IMG/VR virus record: IMGVR_UViG_3300025851_000003
Location: 1 to 45,006 of that record
Origin: a virus
Length of the DNA: 45,006 bases
Direction: 5' to 3' (one strand)
Positions 2,766 to 24,459 of this stretch are shown here, in pieces. Made by a program: the position numbers and the translations under genes. The notes under the pieces were generated by a model that saw nothing but the letters and a program-made list of their open reading frames with translations, was not told where the DNA came from and made no database searches. Numbering within the stretch: the stretch's first letter is position 1; each line of letters begins with the position of its first letter.

Positions 2766-2937
2766 TGTGAAGGGCGACAAGTGCACCATGTACAAGCAGT
2801 ATCGTATCACCTTAAACTCAGGTGTTACCTTTGAAGTTGCAGCCACTCGGTTAGGTGGAGCGTTAGCACTAGCCGAGATGCAGTGCGGAATATACGATGA
2901 GGTCACAGGTATAATCCGTTTAAGTTCAACCAAGTAG
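2740..2937 (+). CDS. Hypothetical protein (65 aa; could instead start at 2755)
   Basis: ORF track. Its TAG stop codon lies inside the palindrome at 2934-2947. Confidence 0.5.
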   Translation: MRNMTMDVNVKGDKCTMYKQYRITLNSGVTFEVAATRLGGALALAEMQCGIYDEVTGIIRLSSTK

Positions 2938-2947
2938 TCTAGACTAC
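2934..2947. repeat. Palindrome family, perfect GTAGTCTAGACTAC
   Basis: Its first TAG is the stop codon of CDS 2740-2937. A half site (AAGTAGTC) follows at 2951. Confidence 0.85.
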
Positions 2948-2996: not shown

Positions 2997-3140
2997 ATGA
3001 GTAAGTACAACGAGTATGATGTGGTACGTGACGGTGTGAGCAAGTCAGCATTGGAACGCAAGGCTAAGGTCAAGGCACATGGTAAGGCAAGACGTAATGG
3101 ACGTGCTCGTAAGGCTTACGGGGGTTCAGGACATGTCTAA
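2997..3140 (+). CDS. Small basic protein (47 aa)
   Basis: Below the ORF-track cutoff. AAGGTAGGG upstream. Translated by eye as MSKYNEYDVVRDGVSKSALERKAKVKAHGKARRNGRARKAYGGSGHV. Stop overlaps ATG 3133 (ATGTCTAA). Confidence 0.4.
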   Translation: MSKYNEYDVVRDGVSKSALERKAKVKAHGKARRNGRARKAYGGSGHV

Positions 3141-3702: not shown

Positions 3703-3716
3703 GTAGTCTAGACTAC
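3703..3716. repeat. Palindrome family, perfect copy (16-bp with T...A flanks)
   Basis: Intergenic. Sits just after the promoter-like TATCAA and 17 nt before ATG 3734. Confidence 0.85.
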
Positions 3717-3733
3717 AACAACGGAGAGAGACA

Positions 3734-4612
3734 ATGACAACTATCGCTTATGATATTGTATACGGTAATGGCAAGACAGTATTCCTAGACTGCGAGCACT
3801 GCTTCGGTAAGCTCAAGCACCTTGAGGAACAAGCGGAATGGTCGGACAAAATAAACTCGCCAAAGATTAACGATGGTGTACAGTTCATTCGCTATTACAT
3901 GGAAGCTAAGTATGAGGACAAGGCAGCGGCGCTTGCATGGTACGAGTACCTGTTATCAACTAAGATATTCGGTGGCTTAGTACTAGGCACCAAGCAATAC
4001 CGCCCAGTTGATATGTTAGAGAATGGCATCAACGTGAGTACACGTGGTCGTCCTTATCACATGCTTAACACACTGTCTATGTATCGTCATGCATATACAC
4101 ACTACCGACAGGTTGACATCTTCCACAAGCTGTTAGGGTTGGGGGTTAACAAGCACATGGCAGCGATTGCAGGTAACTTGCTGGACTATCAAGACAACCG
4201 TAACATAACAACCCTCAAGCATGAGGACGCGGAACATGCAGTGGTATGTCACAACACCTTCACACCGCGTGACTACCAACGGTACGTTGCTATGGCAGAG
4301 GGCACTAAGAAGGTACCGACTAGCCGACACGACCAGAAAGAAAGCTATCGTGTTAAGCCTGAGTATAAGGCGGGCGGTGTGGCTACTTGGTTGACATACA
4401 CGGATGATCGTGATAAGCACAGCGGTAAGGAATTGCTGGGTAACTTGCTGTTAGAGCAGGCATACACAGTACGGTATGACAAAGAGAAGAAAGAGGTAGT
4501 GGACATTATATCTGTTCCTCTCGCTGTAGATAGCAACGATACAGCTGCTATGGCACGGTTAGCCACACAACTGAACAAGTTACACGATGAACTTATCAAT
4601 GATGTAGTCTAA
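3734..4612 (+). CDS. Hypothetical protein (292 aa), first gene of the amidoligase island
   Basis: ORF track. GGAGAGAG upstream. No motif recognised. Its TAA stop lies inside the palindrome copy at 4604-4617. Confidence 0.8.
   Translation: MTTIAYDIVYGNGKTVFLDCEHCFGKLKHLEEQAEWSDKINSPKINDGVQFIRYYMEAKYEDKAAALAWYEYLLSTKIFGGLVLGTKQYRPVDMLENGINVSTRGRPYHMLNTLSMYRHAYTHYRQVDIFHKLLGLGVNKHMAAIAGNLLDYQDNRNITTLKHEDAEHAVVCHNTFTPRDYQRYVAMAEGTKKVPTSRHDQKESYRVKPEYKAGGVATWLTYTDDRDKHSGKELLGNLLLEQAYTVRYDKEKKEVVDIISVPLAVDSNDTAAMARLATQLNKLHDELINDVV
4571..4599 (+). promoter_or_regulatory. Weak promoter-like element (CTGAAC-N17-TATCAA) inside the 3-prime end of the 292-aa gene
   Basis: Has the same TATCAAT..GTAGTC arrangement as at 3696-3716. 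The -35 is poor. Confidence 0.2.
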
Positions 4613-4617
4613 ACTAC
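4604..4617. repeat. Palindrome family, GTAGTCTAAACTAC (1 mismatch)
   Basis: Its TAA is the stop of CDS 3734-4612. Followed by AAAGGA and ATG 4631. Confidence 0.8.
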
Positions 4618-4630
4618 AAAGGATAGAGAG

Positions 4631-5422
4631 ATGAACGCATTAACTGTTGGACATGACGCTGAAGTTTTTGTAACTAACCGAGGTACTATAGCCCATGCTA
4701 TTGGGTTGTTAGGTGGTACTAAGGACGAGCCCTTGCAGGTTGATCAAGGTGCCATACAAGAAGACAACGTGCTAGCTGAGCTTAACATCTGGCCTGCTAC
4801 TAATGCCGATGACTTCGTATCACGTACCAATGTGGTGATGGATGAGATTGTTACACGATTACCTGATGGGTATGACGTACGTGTTCAAGCATCGCATCAT
4901 TACACTAAGCCTGTGCTTATGGCTATGCCTGACCAAGCGTTAGACTTTGGATGTAGTCCAGACTACAATGCATGGACACTGAGTGCTAATGATGTGTCAT
5001 CTCCCTTGACTACACTGCGTACAGCGGGGGGACATGTGCACATAGGGTTCTCACAGGCCGTGACAGCCACCTCACAGGTAGAAGTCATGCGTATGTGTGA
5101 CTACCTATTGGGTCTGCCCTCTGTCCTGTTAGACGATGATGTAGAGCGTCGCTCTTTGTATGGTAAGGCAGGTGCTTACCGTCCTAAAGCATACGGTGCT
5201 GAGTATCGTGTGCTCTCTAACTTCTGGCTGAAGGATGAGGAGTTGATGCGTTGGGTATATGCTCAAGCTGTGTTGTGTCATGATGAGACGCACATGCTAG
5301 ATCACTATGCCTCACTGCCTAACGATGAGCTGATACGTATCATCAATGAGTCAGACAAGGTAGCTGCTGCTCATTGGGTTGAACAATTAGGATTGATAAT
5401 GCCGGAGTCATACCATGTTTGA
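4631..5422 (+). CDS. COOH-NH2 ligase, phage type 2 (GCS2/glutamine-synthetase-like amidoligase family)
   Basis: 263 aa. Recognised from memory of the phiEco32-like COOH-NH2 ligase family through the motifs GHDAE, LLGGTKDEP, QEDNVLAELNI, FGCSPDYNAW, LRTAGGHVHIG, RRSLYGKAGAYRPKAYGAEYRVLSNFWL. Confidence 0.8.
   Translation: MNALTVGHDAEVFVTNRGTIAHAIGLLGGTKDEPLQVDQGAIQEDNVLAELNIWPATNADDFVSRTNVVMDEIVTRLPDGYDVRVQASHHYTKPVLMAMPDQALDFGCSPDYNAWTLSANDVSSPLTTLRTAGGHVHIGFSQAVTATSQVEVMRMCDYLLGLPSVLLDDDVERRSLYGKAGAYRPKAYGAEYRVLSNFWLKDEELMRWVYAQAVLCHDETHMLDHYASLPNDELIRIINESDKVAAAHWVEQLGLIMPESYHV
4953..4966. repeat. Palindrome family, GTAGTCCAGACTAC (1 mismatch)
   Basis: Inside the COOH-NH2 ligase gene, read as S-P-D-Y. 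Confidence 0.75.
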
Positions 5423-5723
5423 AGTAGGGGATATAGTTCAGGGTAAAACTCCCGCTTATCTCGACTACACTATCACCACACATGATGCAACCTTGGAGGT
5501 GGTAGAGGTGAGAGGTCGGAATGTCATGATAGTTAAAGTTGTGCAACATCGCACCCGTCCTGATACCATTGGTAGTAGACACGGTGTCCGGTGTAAGGAC
5601 TTTATCTATCTTGGCACTGCGTGTGATGTTGTAGCGGTGAGTAGTTTAGACTACATGCAATCCAGTGAGCTGTCCGATGTGGATAAGATATTAATAGAGG
5701 GGGCGCTGTCATGTTTAAAGTAG
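5415..5723 (+). CDS. Small-protein paralog P1 (102 aa): variable N-terminal MFxVGD domain plus conserved acidic tail
   Basis: MFEVGDIV... then VSSLDYMQSSELSDVDKILIEGAL. Overlaps its neighbours at a conserved ATGTTTGAAGTAGG junction. Confidence 0.8.
   Translation: MFEVGDIVQGKTPAYLDYTITTHDATLEVVEVRGRNVMIVKVVQHRTRPDTIGSRHGVRCKDFIYLGTACDVVAVSSLDYMQSSELSDVDKILIEGALSCLK
5641..5654. repeat. Palindrome family, GTAGTTTAGACTAC (1 mismatch, synonymous)
   Basis: Encodes SLDY of paralog P1. Confidence 0.75.
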
Positions 5724-6025
5724 GTGATATAGTAGTAGGTAAGAAACTTGACCACCCAGTGTATGGTCTCACCAATCATGAGGCTGTAATGGAGGTGATT
5801 AATACAACAGCACATGGCTCCAATAGGATGAGAGTTAAAATTCTTGTTGCACCACCGCGCAGAGAGGATCAAGTGGGCAAGGATTATCCGGTTGCTAAAA
5901 GACACTTCGAACTCTACATACCTGCACAAGATAAGGTAATAGTGAGAAGTACAGATTACATGGACTGTGATGACTTGTCTGATGAGGACAAGGAGATAAT
6001 AGGGGCGGCGTTATGTTTGCAGTAG
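5711..6025 (+). CDS. Small-protein paralog P2 (104 aa)
   Basis: MFKVGDIV... then VRSTDYMDCDDLSDEDKEIIGAAL. The upstream stop overlaps the start by 13 nt (ATGTTTAAAGTAG). Confidence 0.8.
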   Translation: MFKVGDIVVGKKLDHPVYGLTNHEAVMEVINTTAHGSNRMRVKILVAPPRREDQVGKDYPVAKRHFELYIPAQDKVIVRSTDYMDCDDLSDEDKEIIGAALCLQ

Positions 6026-6291
6026 GTGATAGAGTTGTCCGCACGGTGGCATGGAACTATGCCCGCGGCATGGTTGTAGGTGAGGTTTATACAGTCACGC
6101 ATGTCATCAAACTACGTGAAGGTTCAAGACTACGTTACGTTGAACTGGACGGTATGCTTGGTCTATACAACGCTGAGAACTTCGAGCTAGTACAATCAAT
6201 GACGGTAGTAAGTAGTCTAGACTACATGAATGACACCGTGTTAGATGAGGAAGACAAGCGTATCATAGGAGAAGCGTTATGTTTAAAGTAG
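6013..6291 (+). CDS. Small-protein paralog P3 (92 aa)
   Basis: MFAVGDRV... then VSSLDYMNDTVLDEEDKRIIGEAL. Same overlapping junction. Confidence 0.8.
   Translation: MFAVGDRVVRTVAWNYARGMVVGEVYTVTHVIKLREGSRLRYVELDGMLGLYNAENFELVQSMTVVSSLDYMNDTVLDEEDKRIIGEALCLK
6212..6225. repeat. Palindrome family, perfect copy
   Basis: Encodes SLDY of paralog P3. Confidence 0.85.
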
Positions 6292-6557
6292 GTGATAGCG
6301 TTGTAAGAATCAACAGAAACATGCCACATACCGGAGTGTATGTAGGAGATACGTATACAGTAGCACATTCCGATATGCGGGGTAATATAGGCGTCATAAC
6401 GTTGGTGGGTCTCGGATCGGCTGTGTTCTACTCAAGCAACTTCAAGCTCGGACAGCAATCATTCAGGGTGAATGTAAGTAGTCTAGATTACATGAACGAT
6501 GATACCTTGAGCATTGAAGATAAACAAATTATAACTGAGGCATTGAGTAATGATTAA
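6279..6557 (+). CDS. Small-protein paralog P4 (92 aa)
   Basis: MFKVGDSV... then VSSLDYMNDDTLSIEDKQIITEAL. Confidence 0.8.
   Translation: MFKVGDSVVRINRNMPHTGVYVGDTYTVAHSDMRGNIGVITLVGLGSAVFYSSNFKLGQQSFRVNVSSLDYMNDDTLSIEDKQIITEALSND
6478..6491. repeat. Palindrome family, GTAGTCTAGATTAC (1 mismatch, synonymous)
   Basis: Encodes SLDY of paralog P4. Confidence 0.75.
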
Positions 6558-7164
6558 GGATCGAGAGCTATACACAAGACAGGATACCTCGATGTACCTG
6601 TCTGATTGTATCGTAGGTGTACGCACTGATGAGGGTATCGAGGCACACACTGTACGTGGTGTTGACAGTAGTATACTGCGCTTAGATAATGATCAACGTT
6701 CGTTAGAGATAGACTTCTATGATGAGCGTTTGATACTTGACTGGCCTACACTAGGTGTCGTACAGTTCAGAGGTTTTGTTGGGTACGTCATGACAGAATC
6801 ATTCGATGGTGCATACAAGAAGGGGTTCAACATACGAGGCACCGCACCTATCAAGGTTCCCTTTGCTACCGAGGTTGAGTACATAGGCGAACCATACCTA
6901 TCACACAAGGTACTCAGTGACATGTATGATAACAAGTCGCTCTCATTACAAGAGGCATGTGCCTTGCTTAGTACCCACATATCAGTACGTATTGATCGTA
7001 GCTTCTTTGTTGGTCATAGGTATGGGTATGCCATGCCCTTACTAGGGTATCGAGATAAGGTAGTAGGTGAGGTGCACGGTGATACTGTGATCTTGTTCCC
7101 TTCCTCCGCTCATCTAGCTAGTAAGTTAGAGAGCATAGCAACTGTTGAAATCCACGAGGGTTAG
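6550..7164 (+). CDS. Hypothetical protein (204 aa) inside the amidoligase island
   Basis: ORF track. Overlaps the P4 stop. No motif recognised. Confidence 0.75.
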   Translation: MIKDRELYTRQDTSMYLSDCIVGVRTDEGIEAHTVRGVDSSILRLDNDQRSLEIDFYDERLILDWPTLGVVQFRGFVGYVMTESFDGAYKKGFNIRGTAPIKVPFATEVEYIGEPYLSHKVLSDMYDNKSLSLQEACALLSTHISVRIDRSFFVGHRYGYAMPLLGYRDKVVGEVHGDTVILFPSSAHLASKLESIATVEIHEG

Positions 7165-7168
7165 TACG

Positions 7169-8134
7169 ATGAAGAAGATGTATGAGATATTCGAGAAGGA
7201 TGACGATGCAGTGGGTTGTAATGTATCTCCTTACCTAGTCAGTAACACAATGGTAGGTATTGAGCACGAGTTAGAGGGATACGATACGGAAATAAATGTT
7301 GGTGGTTGGAAGACAGAGCATGATCCCTCTCTACGTAATGGTGGTATCGAGTTCATACTTGATGGCCCTCAAGGTGGTGCTAGGTTAGTAACATCAATCG
7401 AGGCTATGCACAGTATGATTGATAGGCATCCTGAGTTGATAGCCAATGAGCGCACATCAACACACATCCACATAGATGCACGTGATATGACAACACGTCA
7501 GCTATTGAACATGATTGTAGTCTACACTACATTCGAACATGCTATCTTCGCTATGTGTGAGCAGTCACGTACCGATAACAACTTCTGTGTACCATCATAC
7601 AAGAACGGCGGTCTTGCTGACCGTGTACGTAGAGTGCACCTTAACCCTGATAGTGATAGCGCAGTGCATACATTAGCTCACAGTAACTTTCGTTACGCAG
7701 CTATGAACCTGTCAGCTCTGTCACGGTACGGTTCAATAGAGTTTCGTATGAGTGGTACGCTTACTGATAAGGATAAGCTGTTCGATTGGATCAACATCTT
7801 CTTGTCTATCAAGACATTCGCTATGTTGTTAGGCGAGGATGATGTGCAAGATACCATCACTCGTATGAGTAAGATGGAGGCACCACGTCTTACCTCTTTT
7901 ATTTTTGGTGAGAAAATTGCCGAGCTATTTAGTGATAAGGTGAACATGTTTCAGGTGGTAGGTGAGGGGTTGCTACTTGCTAAGCATACATACTGTAGTA
8001 ATGTAGCGTCAGACGCTGATGTATGCGACTATGCACAGCGTTGTGATGTAGAGGCAAGCCCTATACTGGGTGCAATAGAAAGTTTAACAGGCGGTCGTAC
8101 AGACTTCGTTAATTATATGAGAGGTGCAGGATAA
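7169..8134 (+). CDS. Putative amidoligase (Amidoligase_2 / glutamine-synthetase-like fold)
   Basis: 321 aa from ATG 7169 (GAGGG upstream); the track start 7145 is a TTG. Motifs GIEHELE, DPSLRNGGIEF, STHIHID and YGSIEFRMSGT match the putative amidoligase enzyme family as I remember it. Confidence 0.8.
   Translation: MKKMYEIFEKDDDAVGCNVSPYLVSNTMVGIEHELEGYDTEINVGGWKTEHDPSLRNGGIEFILDGPQGGARLVTSIEAMHSMIDRHPELIANERTSTHIHIDARDMTTRQLLNMIVVYTTFEHAIFAMCEQSRTDNNFCVPSYKNGGLADRVRRVHLNPDSDSAVHTLAHSNFRYAAMNLSALSRYGSIEFRMSGTLTDKDKLFDWINIFLSIKTFAMLLGEDDVQDTITRMSKMEAPRLTSFIFGEKIAELFSDKVNMFQVVGEGLLLAKHTYCSNVASDADVCDYAQRCDVEASPILGAIESLTGGRTDFVNYMRGAG
7517..7530. repeat. Palindrome family, GTAGTCTACACTAC (1 mismatch)
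   Basis: Inside the amidoligase gene in the GTA GTC frame. The mismatch turns the would-be TAG into TAC. Confidence 0.7.
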
Positions 8135-9504
8135 TGTGTGGTATCGTAACGGTATTTGGTAAGGGCATGGGCACCACACACGGTGCTATCTTCCATGACC
8201 TACTAATCATTGATCAACTGCGTGGTGTGCATGGTACTGGCATCATCAAGATCAAGAAGAATGGTGAGGCATGGGTACTTAAGGATGGTGTCAATGCATC
8301 TGAGTTACTAGCTGATCCAGCTAACAAGGAGTTTGCTAAGAATGCTAGCACGGCTAACGGTTTCATAGGACACAATCGTTGGGCTACTGTTGGTGCTCAT
8401 ACATCTGACAACTCACATCCATTCACACATGATAACATCTGTATGGTACACAATGGCACGCTTGATGATCAATCTAAGCTAGCCACTGACAAGGATCACA
8501 AGGAGTTCGCTGTTGATAGTGATCAGATAGCCTTCACTCTATCTAAACGTAGCGTAGAGGACACAGTGAAGGCCATTGATGGTGCCTTTGTACTGGCATG
8601 GCATGATGATGAGGACAACTCATTCAACTTTGTACGTAATGATGAGCGTCCATTCCATATAGCTAAGGTGCAGGGACAGGATATCTACATCGGTGCTAGT
8701 GAGGAGTGGATGATACATGCAGCCATTAGCAGACAGAAGGTAGTCTTTGAGATTGACCCACCTAAAGAGTTACCTGTTGGTGTGCATGTTAAGTTCGAGT
8801 TACCTATGCACTACGGTGCGATGGGTGATGTAACCAAGACAACAGTCTCGCTTATGCCTGAGACAGAGAGGTACTGGGCTTCGCTGAGTGCGTACAAAAG
8901 CGCAACCAACTGGAATGGTGGCCAAAGCTCTCGCAGCTATAAGAAATTTCAAGCTCCGAAAGTAGTCCAGACTACACACAAGACGCTATCCTCACAGGTA
9001 GCTGCTGATATGAAGCGCTTGGAACATAAGATTGGTGAGTATGTCGAGGTTGATATGTCACACTTCGAACCATACCCTCAAGCTACTAGTACTGGTAAGC
9101 AGTACGGTGTCATGCATGGTACTGCTATCGTAGCAGGTGGGTTACAAGCTTACGCTGTACATGCAGTCGATCAAGATAAGTTCAAGGAAGGTGCATACAC
9201 TGGCAAGGTAGTGAGTGTGTCGCACAACCTACGTAGAGATGGTGTGCCTCGTGACATGCGTGACATCATTATCTTACATGATGTGACTAAGGCAAGCGTT
9301 TCGCATGATGATGCTTACTTGTATGGCCCGACAGGTGATCTTGTTACAGCTAAGGCATTCAAGATACTAACAGCTGAAGGTTGTATCTGTTGCACATGTG
9401 AGATAACAGAGCAGATGGACACTGATATGTCATGGGATTTCAATGAGCCTGTATGTCCTAACTGTACTGATAGTCTCAAGGGTATGCAAACACTAGCAGT
9501 ATAG
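8134..9504 (+). CDS. Class II (Ntn) glutamine amidotransferase domain protein with unknown C-terminal half and terminal zinc ribbon
   Basis: 456 aa. Begins MCGIV (Cys nucleophile after Met removal). GHNRWATVG...NSHPF...MVHNGTL is typical of GATase type 2. The C-terminal ~230 aa are unassigned and end in CICCTC...CPNC. Confidence 0.85.
   Translation: MCGIVTVFGKGMGTTHGAIFHDLLIIDQLRGVHGTGIIKIKKNGEAWVLKDGVNASELLADPANKEFAKNASTANGFIGHNRWATVGAHTSDNSHPFTHDNICMVHNGTLDDQSKLATDKDHKEFAVDSDQIAFTLSKRSVEDTVKAIDGAFVLAWHDDEDNSFNFVRNDERPFHIAKVQGQDIYIGASEEWMIHAAISRQKVVFEIDPPKELPVGVHVKFELPMHYGAMGDVTKTTVSLMPETERYWASLSAYKSATNWNGGQSSRSYKKFQAPKVVQTTHKTLSSQVAADMKRLEHKIGEYVEVDMSHFEPYPQATSTGKQYGVMHGTAIVAGGLQAYAVHAVDQDKFKEGAYTGKVVSVSHNLRRDGVPRDMRDIIILHDVTKASVSHDDAYLYGPTGDLVTAKAFKILTAEGCICCTCEITEQMDTDMSWDFNEPVCPNCTDSLKGMQTLAV
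8962..8975. repeat. Palindrome family, GTAGTCCAGACTAC (1 mismatch)
   Basis: Inside the amidotransferase gene in the GTA GTC frame. The mismatch turns TAG into CAG. Confidence 0.7.
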
Positions 9505-9603
9505 GAGGCAGCATGTTTATTAGGAACCCATGGTTCATGGAGAGTAGTGTAGTATCATTAACGTTAGACAAATCATTTAAAATATTAGACGGAGAGCTTA
9601 CTG

Positions 9604-10374
9604 ATGAGCAACAAAAAGATTTTTATATTGCCTTACAAGAGTGGCAGCAAGTCAGCCAAGGCACTAGCGACAGCACTGGATTCGAAACGTATCAAATTGA
9701 AGAACTCCCGCTATCGTCCGAGCCAACAACATCTAGTGATCAACTGGGGGAGTCGGGGGGAAACATCGGTCAACTTAGAAGAGAGTGGGTTGCCTTTGTT
9801 GAATCCACCCAGCGCAGTGAGGCTGGCTTCGTGCAAGCTGAAGACATTCCGTTCACTACCTACCGAGGTGGTGCCGATGTGGACAGTGAGCAAAGAGACC
9901 GCAGCAACGTGGATTGGAGAAGGGCTAGTCGTCTGCCGTGGTAAGCTTAACGGTCACAGTGGACAGGGTATTGTGATTGCTTCAACAGTGGACGAGTTGA
10001 TTGATGCCCCCTTGTATGTCAAGTACATTAACAAGAAGCATGAGTATCGAGTACACGTAGTAAACGGCAAGGTGATAGACCAACAACGTAAGATGAGGAG
10101 TCGTAAAGTTGCAGATGAGGATGTCAATTGGAAAATTCGTAACCATTCTAACGGATTTATATTCGGTCGGGAGGGTGTTGATCTCCCACAGGCGGCACTT
10201 GATATGTGTGTCGAGAGTGTTGGAACCCTCGGTCTTGACTTTGGAGCTGTTGACATGGTGTGGAATGAGCGTGATGATAGGTACTATGTACTTGAGATTA
10301 ACACAGCGTGTGGGTTGACAGGTACTACCCTAGAAAAATATGTTGAAGTCTTCAAGGAGATAGCTAATGGCTAA
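9604..10374 (+). CDS. ATP-grasp enzyme (RimK-like / R2K-type small ATP-grasp)
   Basis: 256 aa. Pattern: KLKTFRSL, GLVVCRGKLNGHSGQGIV, YVKYINKKHEYRVHVVNGKV, NHSNGF, GLDFGAVDMVW...YYVLEINTACGL. The final E-x-N matches the metal-binding motif of ATP-grasp ligases. Confidence 0.8.
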   Translation: MSNKKIFILPYKSGSKSAKALATALDSKRIKLKNSRYRPSQQHLVINWGSRGETSVNLEESGLPLLNPPSAVRLASCKLKTFRSLPTEVVPMWTVSKETAATWIGEGLVVCRGKLNGHSGQGIVIASTVDELIDAPLYVKYINKKHEYRVHVVNGKVIDQQRKMRSRKVADEDVNWKIRNHSNGFIFGREGVDLPQAALDMCVESVGTLGLDFGAVDMVWNERDDRYYVLEINTACGLTGTTLEKYVEVFKEIANG

Positions 10375-10657
10375 TGCAATGTGTTGCTCGGTTGGTGATG
10401 CGATAGGCCATTCGTGGGATGGCAACAGATGGTTGGTTGAATCAACAATGGCAATTGGTGTCACGGTACGGCGTATACTAGAAGATGGCAAGCTGGCTGG
10501 TCGGGCTATTCCGGTATACAATTATACGTTAAGGGGAATGGTTATCTTCGAACACGCAGGGGTGCCATCGGCTCTAACAGTAAGTAGTCTGGACTACATG
10601 AATGATGATGAACTGTCTGATGAGGATAAGGACATAATAGCGAGGGCTTTGGCATGA
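10367..10657 (+). CDS. Small-protein paralog P5 (96 aa)
   Basis: ..CSVGDAIG... then VSSLDYMNDDELSDEDKDIIARALA. Overlaps the ATP-grasp stop. Confidence 0.8.
   Translation: MANAMCCSVGDAIGHSWDGNRWLVESTMAIGVTVRRILEDGKLAGRAIPVYNYTLRGMVIFEHAGVPSALTVSSLDYMNDDELSDEDKDIIARALA
10584..10597. repeat. Palindrome family, GTAGTCTGGACTAC (1 mismatch, synonymous)
   Basis: Encodes SLDY of paralog P5. Confidence 0.75.
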
Positions 10658-10947
10658 TGGTTAGTGCATCGTATTGTAAAGTTGGTGATGTGCTAGGTTA
10701 TACCAATAGAGCTTATCGATGGAAGGTTACGAGCGTAAGAGAAGGTGGTGTAACACTACGTCGTATACTAAGCGATGGTAGGCTAGATGAATTCTTATCC
10801 TACCAAGTCAATCGTAAGTTAGCTCCAATGTTTATCTATGAACACGCAGCTCCTTCGTCAGCTGTAACAGTGAGTAGTCTAGACTACATGAGCGATGACA
10901 ACCTATCTAATGAAGACAAACAAATAATTAAAGAGGCACTACTATGA
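10654..10947 (+). CDS. Small-protein paralog P6 (97 aa)
   Basis: ..CKVGDVLG... then VSSLDYMSDDNLSNEDKQIIKEALL. ATGA coupling on both sides. Confidence 0.8.
   Translation: MMVSASYCKVGDVLGYTNRAYRWKVTSVREGGVTLRRILSDGRLDEFLSYQVNRKLAPMFIYEHAAPSSAVTVSSLDYMSDDNLSNEDKQIIKEALL
10874..10887. repeat. Palindrome family, perfect copy
   Basis: Encodes SLDY of paralog P6. Confidence 0.85.
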
Positions 10948-11321
10948 AAGATTCTACATTGGTTGGCGTGTATGGTTCCTTACGTAAGGGCTTAAGCAAT
11001 CACCACTACCTGCAGAACGCTGAGTTTGTTTCAACTACTGAGTTACCTGCTGTGTATAGCATGGTATCTCTTGGTGGATTCCCCGGTGTCATGGAGGGAG
11101 GTGATACTAAGATCATGCTTGAGATGTATCGTGTCACACCTGATGAGCTAGCTAATCTCGATAGTCTAGAAAGCAATGAGAGCTTCTACACTCGTAAGGA
11201 AGTAGATACCCTTGGGGGTAGCACTCCTTGGGTTTACTTTCTCCCTAGAGAGAAGTGGATAGACAATGAGCCTGTACCTAGTGGTGATTGGAAACTATTC
11301 TTGGAGCATCGTTATGCTTAA
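10944..11321 (+). CDS. Gamma-glutamyl cyclotransferase-like protein (GGCT/AIG2 family)
   Basis: 125 aa. The N-terminal VGVYGSLRKGLSNHHYL is the YGSL-x(2)-G-x(2)-N signature of the family. The size is typical. Confidence 0.75.
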   Translation: MKDSTLVGVYGSLRKGLSNHHYLQNAEFVSTTELPAVYSMVSLGGFPGVMEGGDTKIMLEMYRVTPDELANLDSLESNESFYTRKEVDTLGGSTPWVYFLPREKWIDNEPVPSGDWKLFLEHRYA

Positions 11322-11637
11322 GGTAGGTGATAGAGTTAGAATGAGGGCGTCTACTACTATCTATCATGAATGCTATAACAATCCTCGTGGCGTGGATGGT
11401 GTTGTTGTCTCGGTACTTCTTAGTTGCCGAGACGATGGTCATAGTTATAGCGTGCGTTGGGACAACGGTTATACAAACAGTGCATACAGATGGGGTAGAG
11501 ATATTTCTCGGTCGCCACGTGATAACACGGTCGTGATATGCAGTTCATCGTATCAGTCATGTGCTACCCTTGATGAGGAGGATAAAGAAATAATTAAAAA
11601 TAAGTTGAACCTTTTAGAAACTGCACTGTCTAATTAA
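11314..11637 (+). CDS. Small-protein paralog P7 (107 aa), divergent tail with C-terminal extension
   Basis: Start moved to ATG 11314 (GGAG upstream, junction ATGCTTAAGGTAGGTGATA). MLKVGDRV... then CSSSYQSCATLDEEDKEIIKNKLNLLETALSN. The last ~15 codons are also promoter copy A. Confidence 0.75.
   Translation: MLKVGDRVRMRASTTIYHECYNNPRGVDGVVVSVLLSCRDDGHSYSVRWDNGYTNSAYRWGRDISRSPRDNTVVICSSSYQSCATLDEEDKEIIKNKLNLLETALSN
11605..11634 (+). promoter_or_regulatory. Conserved promoter copy A: TTGAAC-N18-TCTAAT with A-rich upstream tract, ahead of the primase-helicase gene
   Basis: -35 at 11605-11610 and -10 at 11629-11634. The same hexamers, spacer length and AAAAATAA upstream tract recur at 32510-32539 and 44645-44674 on the other strand, each time pointing into the downstream gene. 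Confidence 0.6.
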
Positions 11638-11721
11638 TCATACAGTCTCAATCATATCTACTTTAATTTCTTTTAATATAAAGAATTAGTAGTAACGAAT
11701 AAGTAAAGAGGAGTGTTACCT

Positions 11722-13413
11722 ATGGCTGGTCGGCCTTATGAAAAAATAGAGGGAGGTTGTACTGCCTGTGGTGGTTCGCCTCAAGTCTTTGAACAAGATG
11801 ATGGTACGTTTGATTCGTACTGTTACAAGTGTGGTCATGTTGATGATGATCCTTATGGTGAGGGTAAGGCTACTAAGGGAGAGCCACCTAAACGTTTAAC
11901 ACCTGAGCAACTGGCTGCTCAACTACAGGAGATAACAGATGACATGCCAGTACGTGACATACCTGATCGTGGATTACGTAAGGGTGTGTTAGCTTACCTT
12001 GGTATACGTGTTGCAGTTAGTCAGACTGATGGTAAGACTATCCACTCACACTACTACCCAACAGAGATCGATGGAGTGATCACAGGGTATGAGGTAAGAC
12101 GTTGTGATCCTAAAGGTTTCTATGCTATGGGTCAACGTAAGGGTGCTGATCCTTTCAACTGGAAGAAGGCAATGGAAGAGATAGGTAAGGGGCAACGTGA
12201 TCTAATCATCGTTGAAGATGCACTGTCCTGTGCCTCAGTCATCCAAGAGTTCCGTGCTGCACAGAAGGGTACGCAGTATGAGAAGAACATACCTGCTGTG
12301 ATTGCATTACCTATGGGTGCTCAGTCAGGGTTGAAATGTTTAGAGGGTAAGGGTGATCAACTACGTATGGTTGACCGCTTCATCTTCTGCTTAGATCAAG
12401 ATGCAGCTGGTGAGGAAGGCACTCGTAAGCTAATCACCTTGTTAGGACAAGAGAAGTGTATGGCTGCTAAGCTCCCACTTAAAGATCCTAACGACATGAC
12501 AATGGCAGGACGTGGTGCTGAGTTATTCACTGCATTGAAATGGAAGTCACAAGCTGTACGTAATGATGGTGTGAAGGATGCATCGGATTACTTTGATGAT
12601 GCAGGTAAGAAGGCTGAGTGGGGATTGTCGTGGCCTTGGCCATCGGCTACTACTGCCACCTTTGGTATACGTACTGGTGAGATACATATCGTTGGTGCTG
12701 CACCTAAGATTGGTAAGACGGATCACCACTATCAAGTAGCTGATTGGTTGGTACGTGAACACAAGGAGACAATCGGATTGTTTACCTTCGAGTTCTCTGG
12801 TGCCAAGGCAATGAAGATGATAGCTGGTAAGGCAGCACGTAAGCCATTCCATAGACCTGACGTTGAGTACACACCAGCTGAGTTACAAGAAGCTATGGAG
12901 TTATTCAGGGACAAGGTTAAGATCTATGACAGTCGTCAAGACAGGGACTGGCAGTGTGTTAAGGATGCTATCACTGGTATGAGTATACATGATGGAGTTA
13001 AGTACTTCTTCATTGATCCTCTTACTGCATTGATTAGTAGTGTTAGTGCTAGTGAGGCTAACGATAGGTTGAACATGATCATGACTGATCTTGCTAAGCT
13101 TACTGCTGATCTAGGTTGTACCTTCTTTGTATACACACACGTTAACCCTGTTGGTAAGGGCACACCACATGAGCAAGGTGGTCGTGTACTAGCTGGACAG
13201 TTCACAGGGTCACGTGCTATGGAGAAGTGGGCACACTATGGTTGGGGTATCAGTCGTGATCGATTGAATGAGGACGAGGTAGTACGTAATACTTCTACCT
13301 TGGAGATGTTGTTCGATAGAGAGTTCGGTAACACATGCCGCTTCCCTCTCATCTATGATCCATCAACTGCTACCTTCGGGGAGCAATCATACACAGCAAG
13401 CGAGGACTTCTAA
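11722..13413 (+). CDS. Bifunctional DNA primase-helicase (T7 gp4-like)
   Basis: 563 aa from ATG 11722 (AAAGAGGAG upstream). Zinc ribbon CTACGG..CYKCGH, TOPRIM-like IIVEDALS and CLDQDAAG, Walker A GAAPKIGKTD, DnaB-type helicase C-terminal half. Confidence 0.9.
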   Translation: MAGRPYEKIEGGCTACGGSPQVFEQDDGTFDSYCYKCGHVDDDPYGEGKATKGEPPKRLTPEQLAAQLQEITDDMPVRDIPDRGLRKGVLAYLGIRVAVSQTDGKTIHSHYYPTEIDGVITGYEVRRCDPKGFYAMGQRKGADPFNWKKAMEEIGKGQRDLIIVEDALSCASVIQEFRAAQKGTQYEKNIPAVIALPMGAQSGLKCLEGKGDQLRMVDRFIFCLDQDAAGEEGTRKLITLLGQEKCMAAKLPLKDPNDMTMAGRGAELFTALKWKSQAVRNDGVKDASDYFDDAGKKAEWGLSWPWPSATTATFGIRTGEIHIVGAAPKIGKTDHHYQVADWLVREHKETIGLFTFEFSGAKAMKMIAGKAARKPFHRPDVEYTPAELQEAMELFRDKVKIYDSRQDRDWQCVKDAITGMSIHDGVKYFFIDPLTALISSVSASEANDRLNMIMTDLAKLTADLGCTFFVYTHVNPVGKGTPHEQGGRVLAGQFTGSRAMEKWAHYGWGISRDRLNEDEVVRNTSTLEMLFDREFGNTCRFPLIYDPSTATFGEQSYTASEDF

Positions 13414-14602: not shown

Positions 14603-16596
14603 TCTTTGATTGGGAAGCTAATGGCTTACTCGAAGAGGTTACTACTGCTCACTGCTTTGTTGGGATAGACGTAGGTAGTGGGGAGAAGTTTGAATCATAC
14701 ACTGGACAGGAGGATTGGATACAACGTAGTCTAGACTACATGGATACAGCAAAGGTATTGGTAGGACATAACATCATCGGTTATGATCTACCTATGCTTA
14801 AGAAGTTATACAACTGGAAGCCTAAGCCTGATGTACAGATAGTTGATACGTACATACAGAGCAGGACGCAGCATCCTGATAGACGCAGACCATTCAATAT
14901 GAAAGGTAAGGGTGGACCACATGGTCTTGATGCTTGGGGTTACAGAGTTGGTAGAGGTAAGCCATCGTATGATCAATGGGAAACATTCGACATGGAGATG
15001 TTACACCGTTGCTCAGAGGATGTAGCTATCAACGTACTAACCTATAAGAAGTTATGCGAGGAAGGTGGACAGGAGATACTAAACTTCTGGTGGTGTGGCG
15101 CACCATGGAACAAGTCGTTACGCTTAGAGCAGACGGTACAGACGTTCATCAATGAGATGGAGATCAATGGTTGTCCTGTTGATCAACCTCAGATGGAAGA
15201 ACGTATCGCTGACCTGACTGCTATGATGAATGAGATTGAGCGCGAGATCTTACCTGACATACCAAAGAAGATTAGTATGCACGGTGTCGTAGTTAGTAAG
15301 CCCTTCTTGAAGAATGGTGGTCTAGCTAAGATGACAACTGATTGGACTGATGAGGATGTAGGTGGCCCCTTCAGTCGTGTCAAGTTCACACCATTGAACC
15401 TTGGCTCAGAGAAACAAGTGAAGGAATACCTACTTAGTATTGGTTGGATACCTACTGAGTATAACTTCAAGAAGGTAACACAGATAGAACATGATGATCC
15501 ATCATCACCTTATCACGGTCAACCTGTTAAGAGAGAGGCCAAGGATAAGGATGGTAACAAGGTAAGGGCTGGCCCTAAGCTTACAGAGGACTCCTTCAAG
15601 TCGTTGAAGAGTGATGTCGGTAAGAAGATTGCTAGCTACTTACAACGTAGCCACCGTAGAAGCTTACTAGAGGGACTTGTTAAACGTATCCGACCAGACG
15701 GTAGGATATCACAAGGTATCACTGGTATCGCATCGACAGGACGCTACAAGCACACAGGTATTGTTAACATCCCAAGCACAGGATGGTATGGACATGAGAT
15801 TAGATCTTGTTTCGTATCACCTACTGGCTACAAGATGATCGGTACTGATGCAGCTTCATGTCAGTTACGTATGCTAGCTCATTACATGGGTGATGAGGAG
15901 TACATACGAACAGTATGTGAGGGTGAGGAAGCGATTGAACAACCAGATAAGACAGAGATCTACGTAGGTACTGATGTGCATACACGTAATGGACTGGCTG
16001 CTGGCTTGATTAATCCTGACTGGGTAGAACATTGTAAGGGTAAGTTCATACATGACCTTGCTCATGATGACATATATAATGTCCTCTCATACAACAGACG
16101 GTTAGCTAAGAACTTTATCTACGGTCTACTCTTTGGTGCTGGTGATCCTAAGATTGCTGATACCTTGGGTGTGACAGTACGTAAGGCTAAACAGATACGA
16201 GCTACCTTCATGGCTGGGTTGCCTGCACTAGCAGCGCTACTTGCTAAGCTTGATAAGGTATACAAAGAGAGAGGTTATGTTGTTGCACCTGATGGTCGTA
16301 AGCTATATGTACGCTCAGCACATATGATGCTAGTGTATCTCCTACAAGGAGCAGAGGCTACGTTCATGAAGGTTGCATGGTGTTACCTTAACAATGGTGT
16401 TGCGAAGGCTGGACTTGATGTTCAGAAGGTCATGTTTAATCATGATGAATTCCAAGACCTTGTTGCAGAGAAAGATGTTGATGCCTACATGGACATTGCG
16501 AAGGACGCATTCGTACGTGCTGGTGTTTACTTAAAGTTTAAATGTCCCACTGCTGGTGGCCCGAAGGTTGGGTTGTCATGGTATGAGACACACTAA
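14593..16596 (+). CDS. Family A DNA polymerase with 3-prime-5-prime exonuclease domain (T7 gp5-like)
   Basis: 667 aa. Exo motif LVFDWEANGL, motif A GTDAASCQLRMLAH, motif B RRLAKNFIYGLLFGAG, motif C NHDEFQ. Confidence 0.92.
   Translation: MYLVFDWEANGLLEEVTTAHCFVGIDVGSGEKFESYTGQEDWIQRSLDYMDTAKVLVGHNIIGYDLPMLKKLYNWKPKPDVQIVDTYIQSRTQHPDRRRPFNMKGKGGPHGLDAWGYRVGRGKPSYDQWETFDMEMLHRCSEDVAINVLTYKKLCEEGGQEILNFWWCGAPWNKSLRLEQTVQTFINEMEINGCPVDQPQMEERIADLTAMMNEIEREILPDIPKKISMHGVVVSKPFLKNGGLAKMTTDWTDEDVGGPFSRVKFTPLNLGSEKQVKEYLLSIGWIPTEYNFKKVTQIEHDDPSSPYHGQPVKREAKDKDGNKVRAGPKLTEDSFKSLKSDVGKKIASYLQRSHRRSLLEGLVKRIRPDGRISQGITGIASTGRYKHTGIVNIPSTGWYGHEIRSCFVSPTGYKMIGTDAASCQLRMLAHYMGDEEYIRTVCEGEEAIEQPDKTEIYVGTDVHTRNGLAAGLINPDWVEHCKGKFIHDLAHDDIYNVLSYNRRLAKNFIYGLLFGAGDPKIADTLGVTVRKAKQIRATFMAGLPALAALLAKLDKVYKERGYVVAPDGRKLYVRSAHMMLVYLLQGAEATFMKVAWCYLNNGVAKAGLDVQKVMFNHDEFQDLVAEKDVDAYMDIAKDAFVRAGVYLKFKCPTAGGPKVGLSWYETH
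14726..14739. repeat. Palindrome family, perfect copy
   Basis: Inside the DNA polymerase gene, read as R-S-L-D-Y-M. Confidence 0.85.
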
Positions 16597-22801: not shown

Positions 22802-24459
22802 CGTAGAACTCCTGCCTCAATATTGAACAGCTTACGAATGTAGTCTAGACTAGACTCGTGTTCATCCTTCCATAGATACGGATACTTATTAGCTAGTCCT
22901 GCCATAGACTGCACACTAGCTTGCATTAAGGAGTCAACACCTGTCCCCGATGCACGTATCGTCTTAACTATACTGCCCACCCCAAACGCTCCTCTATTCC
23001 TTACAGCTTCTACTTCTTGAATATCGAAATCACTTGGTACGTTGCCTTGAGCAAGTATTAAGTTAGCTTTAGCTTGTCTCACAACACCTTCCAGACTACT
23101 TTCCAACGGCTTACGCCACTGTTCTGGATTACGTGCAATCAAAGCTGGGTATTCACCCTTACCTAGTAGTGCAATAGAGGTGGGGCTGTCGATAGCCGCA
23201 TCCTTAAACAACTGCTCAGCTTGTGGATTAACTTTCAAGCCTTCCTCTACTACACTTCCTAAGTTCTTAGAACCTAACATAGTTATAAAACCAGCAGTCT
23301 CAGCTAATTTCTCTTCAGGGTCACTTGCACCGAATAAGGAGTTAACACCCTTACCCATGACGTGAGCTATGTCCTGTTCAAACTGTCCTACCATACCCGA
23401 AACCTTCTTAAAGAAGGGATCATTCTCTAGAACAATACCTAATTCATCGTTCCCTTGGAATGCAGTAAGTAACTTAGTAACACCTACCTCTCCCATGCTA
23501 TCCTTAACAGCCTTTAAAGCACCGAAGTTCTTTAATACAGCACTATCAAAGTTATTCTTTAGGATAGACTGGTTATCCTTAACGATATTTAACATGGCGC
23601 TATCGTCCATCAAACCTTTAAGAGAGAATATAGTATCATCAACCTCTTTACGTGCATCCTGATAAGCACGAGCTGATATCTTTGTACCACCAGCCATTCT
23701 CTGTAACTGCTTATGTAACTTAGATTCAATCAGAGGAAGCTGTTGCTTGTATTCTAAGAGGCGTTGAGGTGATAGAGCACCATTGGTATTAACATCAGCT
23801 ATAAGCGCCTGAGAGAGGTTCATACGAGCCTCATTGGATGCAGACGAAGCGAATGATAGATACTCATCACCATTAAGCTCACGTCTAGCCTTAGTTAATG
23901 CTATCTTCTTCTGATCAAACATCATCTGCTCATTATCTTCGATGCGTTGTTCAGCTAATTCCTCAGATACACCAAGCTTAAGAGCTGTTGATGTGACATT
24001 GGCACGATACTCGGCCTCTGCCTTCTCCTCAGCAGTAGGTGTGAAGATGGATGCACCAGCACCTCCGAAGAACTTGTTGTATTCCTTCTGAATGTCATCA
24101 GCGAAGAAGGCATTATCATTCTTTGCTGTCTTTAAGATAGAAGTAGCACGAGCCTTAGCCTGTGCAAGTGGTAAGCCTGCCTTACGAGCAGCAGCCAACT
24201 TACCTAAGCTATTAATACTGTCGTTAGCCATAGACTGTCCAACCTCGTCAACCTCCTCCATAGAAGCTAGAGCCTCTTTAGGGACGATATCAAGGCTACC
24301 ATCTGTAAGAGAGGCGACAGCTAGTTGCCGTCCCCCCTCCACTGCTAATCCACCAATCTTACTGATTAAATCAGCACCTGATGTGTCAACATTAGCACCC
24401 TGTACGAAAGTGTTAGCTGTAGTATCTGATAGTTGTGGAGCGAATATATTACTGGCCAT
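22798..24459 (-). CDS. Internal virion / ejection protein candidate (553 aa)
   Basis: ORF track. Sits at the end of the tail and internal-protein block, as T7 gp15/gp16 do. No enzymatic motif recognised. Confidence 0.6.
   Translation of the reverse strand: MASNIFAPQLSDTTANTFVQGANVDTSGADLISKIGGLAVEGGRQLAVASLTDGSLDIVPKEALASMEEVDEVGQSMANDSINSLGKLAAARKAGLPLAQAKARATSILKTAKNDNAFFADDIQKEYNKFFGGAGASIFTPTAEEKAEAEYRANVTSTALKLGVSEELAEQRIEDNEQMMFDQKKIALTKARRELNGDEYLSFASSASNEARMNLSQALIADVNTNGALSPQRLLEYKQQLPLIESKLHKQLQRMAGGTKISARAYQDARKEVDDTIFSLKGLMDDSAMLNIVKDNQSILKNNFDSAVLKNFGALKAVKDSMGEVGVTKLLTAFQGNDELGIVLENDPFFKKVSGMVGQFEQDIAHVMGKGVNSLFGASDPEEKLAETAGFITMLGSKNLGSVVEEGLKVNPQAEQLFKDAAIDSPTSIALLGKGEYPALIARNPEQWRKPLESSLEGVVRQAKANLILAQGNVPSDFDIQEVEAVRNRGAFGVGSIVKTIRASGTGVDSLMQASVQSMAGLANKYPYLWKDEHESSLDYIRKLFNIEAGVLR
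22840..22853. repeat. Palindrome family, GTAGTCTAGACTAG (1 mismatch)
   Basis: The only copy in the structural arm. Read on the minus strand as S-L-D-Y near the C-terminus of the 553-aa protein. Confidence 0.7.

Follow-up and report, generated by a model that had tools for sequence, protein, structure and literature searches.

The genes discussed here were analysed in a single stretch of viral DNA, positions 1 to 45,006 of IMG/VR record IMGVR_UViG_3300025851_000003. This stretch, called the window below, is a complete 45,006-bp metagenomic contig with podophage organisation from an uncultured marine phage. Seven of its small genes, P1 to P7, form a lineage-specific multigene family of early or middle phage proteins, in which each member joins a variable small beta-barrel head (SH3/KOW-like) to a constant, amphipathic and acidic C-terminal helix. 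The reading that we prefer, with a probability of about 0.55, is that the constant tail acts as a docking handle on a set of adaptors and that the DNA encoding it is put to more than one use. Three constraints keep the tail constant. The first is a clade-wide palindrome, GTAGTCTAGACTAC, whose only stop-free reading is (S)S-L-D-(Y). The second is purifying selection at the protein level on the helix Y....L..(E)DK.II...L. As the third, the last codons of the tail provide the Shine-Dalgarno site of the next gene and overlap its start codon. The 3' end of a family gene is then the translated version of a regulatory cassette that occupies the same intergenic slots in relatives without the family.

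All seven small open reading frames (ORFs) described in the original prediction were recovered, each on the + strand and 92-107 aa long. P1 (5415..5723, 102 aa), P2 (5711..6025, 104 aa), P3 (6013..6291, 92 aa) and P4 (6279..6557, 92 aa) follow one another directly. P5 (10367..10657, 96 aa) is followed by P6 (10654..10947, 97 aa), and P7 (11314..11637, 107 aa) was given its start at 11314, not 11266, because its homologues begin at MLKVGD. Alignment of the seven proteins bore out a shared N-terminal domain and a conserved C-terminal tail. Identity to P1 is 22-44%, the common start is M-[FLAM]-x-V-G-D, and the invariant residues are M1, V, G, D, S, Y, L, D, K, I and L. To call the tail almost invariant was an overstatement, as P2 reads VRSTDY and P7 reads ICSSSY. 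When 62 homologues are compared, the tail positions that never vary are reduced to Y, L, D, K, I and L.

The genes are closely packed. Five copies of a repeated junction, ATGTTTAAAGTAGGTGATA, are found when up to 3 mismatches are allowed (0.01 expected). The 13-nt overlap that had been ascribed to consecutive genes holds for P1/P2, P2/P3 and P3/P4, where the downstream ATG lies 13 nt ahead of the upstream stop; the remaining junctions are shorter. Overlaps of 8 nt join the upstream COOH-NH2 ligase to P1, the upstream ATP-grasp gene to P5, P4 to the next gene, and the gamma-glutamyl cyclotransferase-like gene (GGACT) to P7, and overlaps of 4 nt are found at P5/P6 and P6/GGACT. Because of the 13-nt overlap, the C-terminal C-L-K/Q residues are the other-frame reading of ATGTTTAAAGTAG. 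P1 to P7 end in K, Q, K, D, A, L and N, respectively, and the last residues of the homologues are equally varied. It is plausible that the family genes are translationally coupled to their neighbours.

In the tail, SSLDY is encoded by AGT AGT CTA GAC TAC, within which lies a perfect palindrome of 14 bp, GTAGTCTAGACTAC. When up to 2 mismatches are allowed, the window has 13 copies of it against 0.46 expected, and none of 100 shuffled sequences reached 13. Five copies lie in family tails: in P1 (5641..5654, GTAGTTTAGACTAC, 56 nt before the P2 ATG), P3 (6212..6225, exact, 53 nt before the P4 ATG), P4 (6478..6491, GTAGTCTAGATTAC, 58 nt before the ATG at 6550), P5 (10584..10597, GTAGTCTGGACTAC, 56 nt before the P6 ATG) and P6 (10874..10887, exact, 56 nt before the GGACT ATG). 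The palindrome is degenerate in P2 and missing from the P7 tail; these two, and the members at 4466 and 10228 of the related contig L022, which are likewise without the palindrome, do not have SSLD. The palindrome contains TAG in two of its three frames on both strands, and the open frame, xGT-AGT-CTA-GAC-TAC, can only read x-S-L-D-Y. Codon usage in 26 family tails from five contigs agrees with a constraint on the DNA. The codons for T-S-S-L-D (ACA, AGT, AGT, CTA, GAC) show synonymous-difference fractions of only 0.08-0.20, whereas the tail V codon (GTA/GTG) is freer at 0.47 and the equally conserved L15, I22, I23 and L27 reach 0.67-0.77. Variation at the first base pair of the palindrome alters the residue (S to D, N or G) and leaves a 12-bp core. 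The palindrome alone explains the SSLD part of the tail.

The remainder of the tail behaves differently. L15, D19, K20, I23 and L27 vary hardly or not at all, although 2-5 synonymous codons are in use for each of them. Since invariant residues are written with several codons, protein-level purifying selection is indicated for the helix Y..L..EDK.II...L. The helix has a ratio of non-synonymous (dN) to synonymous (dS) substitution, omega, of 0.23, and synonymous change is free past the palindrome, so the earlier expectation that the palindrome alone would not account for tail conservation held up. Purine runs such as AAGGAG, GAGGG and AGGAGA, placed 7-11 nt before the next ATG, encode the conserved residues with which the tail closes (K/x-E-A/Y-L). 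Tail codons 24-25 are biased to G-ending forms when compared with codons 18 and 20 for the same amino acids (P=0.003). The tail thus also supplies the downstream Shine-Dalgarno site.

A related contig, L027, separates these constraints. Its orthologous intergenic sites carry a 13-mer, GTAGTC[A/T]GACTAC, in 5 copies (4076, 5766, 6806, 7569 and 8637), each 14-77 nt upstream of a start. Six family genes persist in L027 with conserved helices, and the palindrome has been lost from their tails, which read CSADY, CSTDY, YASDY and LASDY and keep DYM..L.EEDK.II.EA. The loss of SSL can be understood because the 13-mer cannot substitute for the 14-mer in frame. It follows that the DNA element keeps SSL in place, that selection on the protein maintains D-Y and the helix, and that the family persists without the element. 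L027 can be regarded as a natural control lineage in which constraint on the DNA and constraint on the protein come apart.

The palindrome had been treated as a side issue of the family. This view had to be given up: 8 of the 13 copies in the window lie outside the family genes, and the palindrome is an independent, clade-wide DNA element. Three of these copies are at gene boundaries. One (2934..2947) overlaps the stop of a 65-aa ORF (2740-2937) and lies 49 nt before an ATG at 2997; another (3703..3716) is intergenic, 17 nt before an ATG at 3734; and the third (4604..4617, GTAGTCTAAACTAC) has the stop codon of ORF 3734-4612 at its centre and lies 13 nt before the ligase ATG. Four copies are within enzyme genes, and the single stop-free frame accounts for how they are read. 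The copy in the COOH-NH2 ligase (4953..4966, GTAGTCCAGACTAC) reads CSPDY, and an exact copy in the DNA polymerase gene (14726..14739) reads RSLDYMD and occurs at the same place in L022. The copies in Amidoligase_2 (7517..7530, GTAGTCTACACTAC, read as VVYTT) and in the class II glutamine amidotransferase (GATase; 8962..8975, GTAGTCCAGACTAC, read as VVQTT) are in another frame, and in each a single mismatch (GTC-TAC and GTC-CAG, respectively) removes the in-frame TAG. The last copy (22840..22853, GTAGTCTAGACTAG) marks the boundary of the two convergent gene blocks. At the DNA polymerase copy and its counterpart at L022 14680, the sequence DWIQ-R/S-SLDYMD is followed by an in-frame ATG, so an internal start or a regulatory site in the polymerase gene is possible.

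The element is not confined to phages with the family. It is present in multiple copies on the family-less IMG/VR contigs L010/L018 and L004/L011/L015, whose copy of the enzyme cluster is 28-47% identical at the protein level, and also on L020, where no cluster gene was detected in the 9.2 kb examined. On family-less contigs the palindrome is mostly intergenic, and its positions include the slots used by the family elsewhere (in L018 at 2728 after the ligase, at 7070 after ATP-grasp and at 8491 after GGACT). It is absent from phage tf, Pseudoalteromonas phage Slicky01 and two oyster Zobellviridae. A literature search for the 14-mer returned unrelated cloning primers only, and no description of the element was found. 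In the AT-rich contigs L015 (233, 459 and 1697) and L004, the palindrome is mostly GTAGTTTAGACTAC, with flanks (cGA...TCg) that extend the symmetry to ~18 bp; this form is a lineage-specific variant of the element. In L010, palindromes at 614 and 708 bracket 3-4 tandem repeats of ~20 bp (ATTATGACAATTATGGTCAC; 630-700) near the genome end, which could be iteron-like or tandem promoter-like.

The position of the palindrome relative to genes points to a role in expression. Over nine contigs of the clade, 50 of the 71 palindromes have a called gene start 10-87 nt downstream, where 12.1 would be expected (binomial P=4e-23). The gaps are bimodal: bare intergenic copies lie at 13-30 nt, whereas the copies in tails, together with some others, lie at 47-65 nt. 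The arms GTAGT/ACTAC are nearly invariant, and changes concentrate at the central positions 6-9. Invariant 5-bp inverted half-sites, a variable centre and a lineage-wide concerted change (the L027 13-mer with its 3-nt centre) are what a dimer operator or a hairpin would have. The palindrome thus fits recognition by a dimeric DNA-binding protein or as an extruded hairpin. Our best guess is that it is probably an expression-related cis-element, either an operator or a phage-specific early/middle promoter.

Several known kinds of element were considered and set aside. A sigma-70 promoter was rejected, with no conserved upstream positions and no fixed -35/-10 spacing in 79 aligned sites; a sigma-70 scan gave 26 sites against 32.5 expected, none of them coinciding with palindromes. 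A stable RNA hairpin was also rejected (~-5 kcal/mol; z-scores from -2.1 to +1.6, mostly near 0; no Rfam match), and no intrinsic terminator was called at the palindrome sites. The nick motif of LUZ24-type phages (WACTRTGAC/TACTRTGMC) matched once in the window against 3.2 expected. The window yielded neither a phage RNA polymerase nor a phage sigma factor, nor a homologue of the oyster-phage sigma factor, and the large virion proteins gave no Pfam or PDB hits in the search for an RNA polymerase or sigma factor.

The concerted change from 14-mer to 13-mer in L027 argues for a co-evolving, probably phage-encoded recognition factor. A candidate can be named by co-occurrence only, as a lead rather than a finding. 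A 224-aa protein (1823-2497) without family assignment is present in every motif-bearing contig that covers the region (weakly in family-less L010), and is absent from the motif-less phage tf, Slicky01 and the oyster phages. A basic 47-aa ORF (2997-3140) is a further candidate.

The palindrome can be compared with repeated elements of other phages. In phage T7, class II promoters are a short conserved element present in about a dozen copies across the genes of DNA metabolism, often in the 3' end of the preceding gene. The palindrome resembles them in copy number (~12), in its spread over DNA-metabolism genes and in its place 10-60 nt upstream of starts. Its 5-bp inverted repeat with a centre of 3-4 nt is like the early-promoter hairpins of phage N4 in size. 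Unlike in T7 and N4, the palindrome is perfect, and the window has no detected phage RNA polymerase or sigma factor. LUZ24-like phages share their genome architecture and the amidoligase cluster with the window (ligase 48% identical). These phages carry a nick-associated motif, TACTRTGMC in phage tf and WACTRTGAC in Rembedalsseter and 60 relatives (PMC3517423; PMC11780129). Like the palindrome, the nick motif is present in ~9-14 copies in the early half of the genome, at conserved positions within and outside genes. The two differ in sequence and in symmetry, as the nick motif is on one strand only. They also differ in placement, with the palindrome enriched just upstream of gene starts and the nick motif not enriched outside coding sequence (PMC11780129). 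Phage tf has the nick motif and no copy of the palindrome, and nicking is not visible in assemblies.

The heads were proposed to be SH3/Tudor-like, and the fold class found support. AlphaFold2 (AF2) models of P4 and P6 were built with a 62-sequence alignment and have identical architecture, with a mean predicted local distance difference test (pLDDT) score of 81.8 for P4 and 83.9 for P6 (~90 within the barrel). Each is a small beta-barrel of 4-5 strands, after which L-D-Y-M forms a short helix and EDK.II..AL a terminal one; in P4 the barrel covers residues 1-57 and the helices residues 68-72 and 79-90. Foldseek aligned the models to eS4/Spt5 KOW, YorP, PWWP, SH3, Tudor, Sm-like and Gemin6 barrels in the PDB (probability up to 0.97, with non-significant E-values of at least 0.04) and to many uncharacterised small phage proteins in BFVD (best E 1e-4). 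The head of the family profile also matches SH3_15-repeat proteins. Curated Pfam families give less: none for P3 and P5, and for P1 a sub-threshold hit to DUF7914 only, so that no curated SH3 or KOW model is matched above its gathering threshold. A small SH3/KOW-like barrel is therefore supported for the head by the models, and this fold class carries no specific functional information. The same ~60-aa barrel with an F.VGD-type N-terminal strand is found in YorP of a Bacillus subtilis prophage (PDB 2heq), in DUF4314 and in PHROGs 4317, 9469, 11307 and 18715. The P7 head matches the last three, which are of unknown function. These stand-alone SH3/KOW proteins are, like P1-P7, phage early-region proteins of unknown function. 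They do not have the Y..L..EDK.II..L tail, the PHROG matches span the head only, and stand-alone proteins of this kind have not been described in tandem arrays with a common constant tail.

Heads and tails evolve at different rates. Pairwise NG86 estimates (with bootstrap 95% intervals) were made between the window and its two closest relatives, L028 and L029. The pooled heads have a dN of 0.29, a dS of 0.35 and an omega of 0.84 (0.64-1.12), and the helix a dN of 0.10, a dS of 0.43 and an omega of 0.23 (0.10-0.48). The flanking enzymes have dN of 0.004-0.046, dS of 0.055-0.20 and omega of 0.06-0.25. Non-synonymous change is thus 6-70 times faster in the heads than in neighbouring genes. The P6 head, compared with its L029 counterpart, has a dN of 0.55, a dS of 0.28 and an omega of 1.94 (1.02-3.99). 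Separate treatment of the two parts, as had been proposed, therefore agrees with fast heads on a constrained tail. Head evolution would range from nearly neutral to positive.

Unequal homologous recombination in the conserved tail and junction DNA expands and contracts the family and exchanges its heads. The array of P1-P4 types is 1-2-3-4 in the window, 2-3-3'-4 in L028 and of 1-3 copies in other contigs. In L029, type 1 is followed by a P2-like gene with an assembly gap in it, on the far side of which the sequence ends as a P4-type tail. On a separate 1.7-kb contig, homologue P0004 combines a P2-type head with a P4-type end, and the join lies inside the tail (..STDYMDCD|ALSIEDKQIITEALSND), as unequal crossing-over between two tails should produce. 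This chimera and the varying copy number among close relatives agree with the tandem duplication by unequal recombination that had been proposed. Mobile promoter/stem-loop cassettes (PeSLs), said to have been described by Arbiol et al. in 2010, reportedly shuffle small genes in T4-type phages. The likeness is that a repeated regulatory sequence flanks small early genes of fast turnover, offers a substrate for recombination and goes with variation in copy number and order. The P1-P7 repeat differs in that it is translated into protein and is itself under purifying selection.

The family is rare. A profile search of 5.8 billion clustered proteins returned 64 homologues, none with a Pfam domain or a name beyond "hypothetical protein". 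An exhaustive HMMER scan of 1.84 billion representatives gave 102 hits, of which ~70 are full-length (90-116 aa). The longer hits match by the head only, through repeated SH3-type domains (one reaches Pfam SH3_15 at 7e-71), and among the 102 hits the tail is never on a larger protein. A tail-only profile gave no hit at E<=0.1 in 5.8e9 sequences, where a 34-position profile cannot reach significance. Sequence searches with the family profile against the PDB found nothing meaningful, and tblastn of a family member against GenBank phages gave weak head-only matches, with the tail absent from cultured phages. All full-length relatives belong to one clade of ~45-kb marine podophages. Homologues P0014 and P0021 are deposited at NCBI under a metagenome-assembled genome of Phaeodactylibacter sp.; this contig is probably a mis-binned phage fragment because all retrieved contigs have phage context.

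Ten family-bearing contigs were retrieved, and in all ten the family is embedded in an amidoligase cluster of the phiEco32/LUZ24 type. In the window the cluster runs, on the + strand, from the phiEco32-like COOH-NH2 ligase (PF14395; 4631..5422) through P1-P4, a 204-aa conserved cluster member of unknown function (phrog_11055; 6550..7164), Amidoligase_2 (PF12224; 7145..8134), the GATase (8134..9504), a ligase of the RimK/MvdCD ATP-grasp superfamily (9604..10374), P5, P6, GGACT (a GGACT/AIG2 protein; 10944..11321) and P7 to the primase-helicase. The ligase has 1-4 family genes directly 3' in every related contig; 1-2 copies are found after ATP-grasp or the GATase and 1-2 after GGACT, and family genes in these slots overlap their neighbours by 4-13 nt. 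Phages tf, LUZ24 and PaP3, and over 300 others, have the same enzymes in the same order, without the small genes. On the function of the cluster, the later literature gives predictions only, namely modification of the cell wall or of metabolites (PMC10580990).

Under the docking-handle reading, the heads may bind different targets and the constant helix may dock all paralogues to one common partner, so that in host takeover the family members would serve as adaptors or substrates that can stand in for one another. The arms race with the host that the original prediction invoked for the heads, and its handle for docking, modification, degradation or packaging, would be possible readings at most. 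As partner, a component of the flanking amidoligase/ATP-grasp cluster, to which the family genes appear translationally coupled, would be the most economical choice. That the partner is in the amidoligase cluster is uncertain. Adjacency and start/stop overlap with the ligase, ATP-grasp and GGACT genes, the graspetide-type relatives of the ATP-grasp protein and the invariant Asp-Lys of the tail speak for it; the low scores of those relatives, the wide occurrence of the cluster without the family, the family genes outside it and the unconserved C-termini speak against it. A conceptual analogue is provided by poxviruses, in which ankyrin/PRANC (F-box-like) families combine variable target-binding domains with a constant C-terminal docking motif and expand and contract by recombination. 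The analogy is conceptual only: the two families are not homologous, they differ in kingdom, in size and in partner, and docking is putative here.

Several points weigh against this reading. The docking and adaptor roles are inferred from architecture and evolutionary rates in metagenomic contigs alone. The cluster occurs without the family in tf and LUZ24-like phages, L018 and L004/L015, so the link between the two may be one of shared descent. Outside the cluster, a few family genes are found at positions upstream of it, still within the early region (L002 5289-5886 and L024 2538-3123). The Foldseek matches of the heads in the PDB, as given above, are not significant. Head dS (0.35) exceeds that of the neighbours (~0.05-0.20), which suggests exchange with divergent alleles or paralogues; some pairs of head orthologues may then be paralogues or recombinants, inflating dN and omega. 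Pairwise NG86 on 60-70 codons is also weak evidence for positive selection.

Among the other explanations, the one that survives best holds that the neighbouring ligases use the family proteins as substrates or carriers, with covalent modification of the conserved tail (Ser/Thr, Asp/Glu, Asp-Lys). The chemistry could be graspetide-like macrocyclisation, or glutamylation by the ATP-grasp or GS-like amidoligases with GGACT removing gamma-glutamyl links. This explanation is unlikely in our view. The family genes directly follow and overlap the stops of the COOH-NH2 ligase, ATP-grasp and GGACT genes in 10/10 contigs. The nearest solved relatives of the ATP-grasp protein, though weak matches, are the graspetide macrocyclases CdnC (7mgv, E=1.8e-4) and MdnC/MdnB (5ig9/5ig8; MdnC E=0.06), and its nearest NCBIfam models are RimK, MvdC, MvdD, LysX and MptN. 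The residues D and K are invariant in 62 homologues, Ser/Thr persists where the palindrome has been lost, and tandem precursor genes with a constant modified region are typical of clusters for ribosomally synthesised and post-translationally modified peptides (RiPPs). However, the ATP-grasp protein scores far below the cut-offs (37 against 425 bits for NCBIfam MvdC, 39 against 143 for RimK), the enzyme cluster is present in many phages without the family, and some family genes lie outside it. The head is a folded barrel and not a leader peptide, and the invariant spacing of L, I, I and L fits a docking helix.

The layout of a graspetide precursor was not found in P1-P7: the N-terminal part is a folded variable barrel, and the tail with its conserved S/T, D/E and DK is predicted to be helical. 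A C-terminal carrier of the LysW, S6 or Pup type was excluded, as the C-termini are heterogeneous and no conserved EDWGE, ..EE, GGQ or GGE end is present. The likeness to microviridin-type graspetides, LysW and RimK-S6 lies in small proteins beside an ATP-grasp gene, often in tandem, with a constant Ser/Thr-Asp/Glu-Lys region. The differences are a variable folded head in place of a leader, an unconserved C-terminus, an ATP-grasp below cut-off and a cluster that is widespread without the family. In phage tf (L003), a small gene between the GATase and ATP-grasp genes and directly upstream of the latter, tf_23 (11740-11949), encodes A-T-R-K-Y-P-F-T; it was considered as a relative of the tail and rejected, having no similarity to it. 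It shares TRKYP with the core of microviridin J (ISTRKYPSDWEEW). This may be a chance likeness, or the LUZ24-like phages may encode a graspetide-like precursor.

A combined proposal, that the tail is the recognition or acceptor peptide of the ATP-grasp/amidoligase/GGACT machinery and that the palindrome is the promoter or operator of a phage-specific transcription switch with a co-evolving factor (as the L027 13-mer suggests), is rated somewhat below the substrate explanation. If the tail were such an acceptor peptide, the seven paralogues would be a diversified set of small ribosomal products that the cluster modifies covalently or sends to targets, and the phage would encode a protein-tagging or RiPP-like system with SH3-type cargo.

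It is doubtful, slightly more so again, that the genes are mainly vehicles of the palindrome, that is, selfish or regulatory cassettes, comparable to the PeSLs of T4-type phages, which spread by recombination at the palindrome and the conserved junction and in which the protein is secondary or unimportant. The bare palindromes in the same intergenic slots of family-less relatives (L018 2728, 7070 and 8491) would be expected of such cassettes, and so would slots that differ between relatives, varying copy number with a chimera and head omega near 1. Such cassettes would not readily explain strong conservation of the helix amino acids with free synonymous change (omega 0.23), intact ORFs in ~70 divergent representatives, the retention of head fold signatures (F.VGD, strand pattern), or the six family genes and helices that L027 keeps after loss of the palindrome.

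A capsid-loading signal for co-injection or a mark for timed proteolysis is very improbable. By architecture alone, a constant terminal peptide on variable small proteins would suit either role, and the phage has a 1459-aa internal virion protein, but the genes lie in the early/middle replication block and not among the late genes, and no similarity to known capsid-targeting sequences was found. The least credible proposal, already largely refuted, is that conservation is purely at the DNA or RNA level (palindrome, Shine-Dalgarno site, overlapping start) on a functionless protein tail. In its favour, these features cover ~11 of ~28 tail codons. Against it, L15, D19, K20, I23 and L27 use 2-5 synonymous codons each, the helix has an omega of 0.23 with a dS of 0.43, the ~40 nt between palindrome and Shine-Dalgarno site are missing from bare intergenic cassettes (gaps of 10-30 nt), and no conserved RNA structure was detected (z ~0).

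Neither small phage proteins of SH3-like fold nor early-gene families in tandem are new as such. What is new here is the constant helix, the palindrome and the Shine-Dalgarno site of the next gene embedded in it, and the cis-element itself. If the docking-handle reading with its overlapping codes is true, one stretch of DNA would serve naturally as a protein helix, a cis-acting palindrome and the next ribosome-binding site, and the phiEco32/LUZ24-type amidoligase cluster, for which no function has been known since 2009, would gain in the family its first candidates for a partner or substrate. The palindrome could also explain the timing of gene expression in podophages without a detected RNA polymerase, whose LUZ24-like relatives carry the enigmatic nick motif. 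For motif-based annotation there is a caution, as an "invariant peptide motif" can be the sole open reading of a regulatory palindrome.

The rest of the window is that of a podophage. The leftward block, on the + strand, holds early and replication genes (T7-type primase-helicase, family A DNA polymerase, exonuclease, metallophosphoesterase), and a convergent block on the - strand holds structural genes (terminase, portal, tail proteins and the internal virion protein). The terminase is ~57% identical to its counterparts in Vibrio phage ICP2 and the oyster-metagenome Zobellviridae, and megablast of region 4600-11700 against GenBank phages found no nucleotide-level relative. Rfam and tRNA scans of the window gave no hits. 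Between the GATase and ATP-grasp genes, a short ORF on the + strand (9513..9650; ..SSVVSLTLD..LTDEQQKDFYIAL) is a possible headless remnant of an eighth family member. Its product, ..SSVVSLTLD..GELTDEQQKDFYIALQEW, looks like a divergent tail without a head, and in the same slot L026 has a full SH3-like head (6766-7482) with a matching tail, ..GELTHDEQKDFYTALQKW. ORF 9513-9650 may therefore be a decayed eighth member that overlaps the ATP-grasp start. In the leftmost early region, which is free of palindromes, three near-identical promoter-like sites (286-314, 1632-1660 and 1804-1832) read TAGACA-N17-(C/G)ATACT with TG before the second hexamer, and may be true early promoters for the host RNA polymerase. 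Finally, a 154-aa ORF between the primase-helicase and DNA polymerase genes (13413-13877) has a hydrophobic, signal-peptide-like N-terminal segment and has the look of a moron; it matches phrog_3600, which is annotated as a PagP-like lipid A acylation protein.

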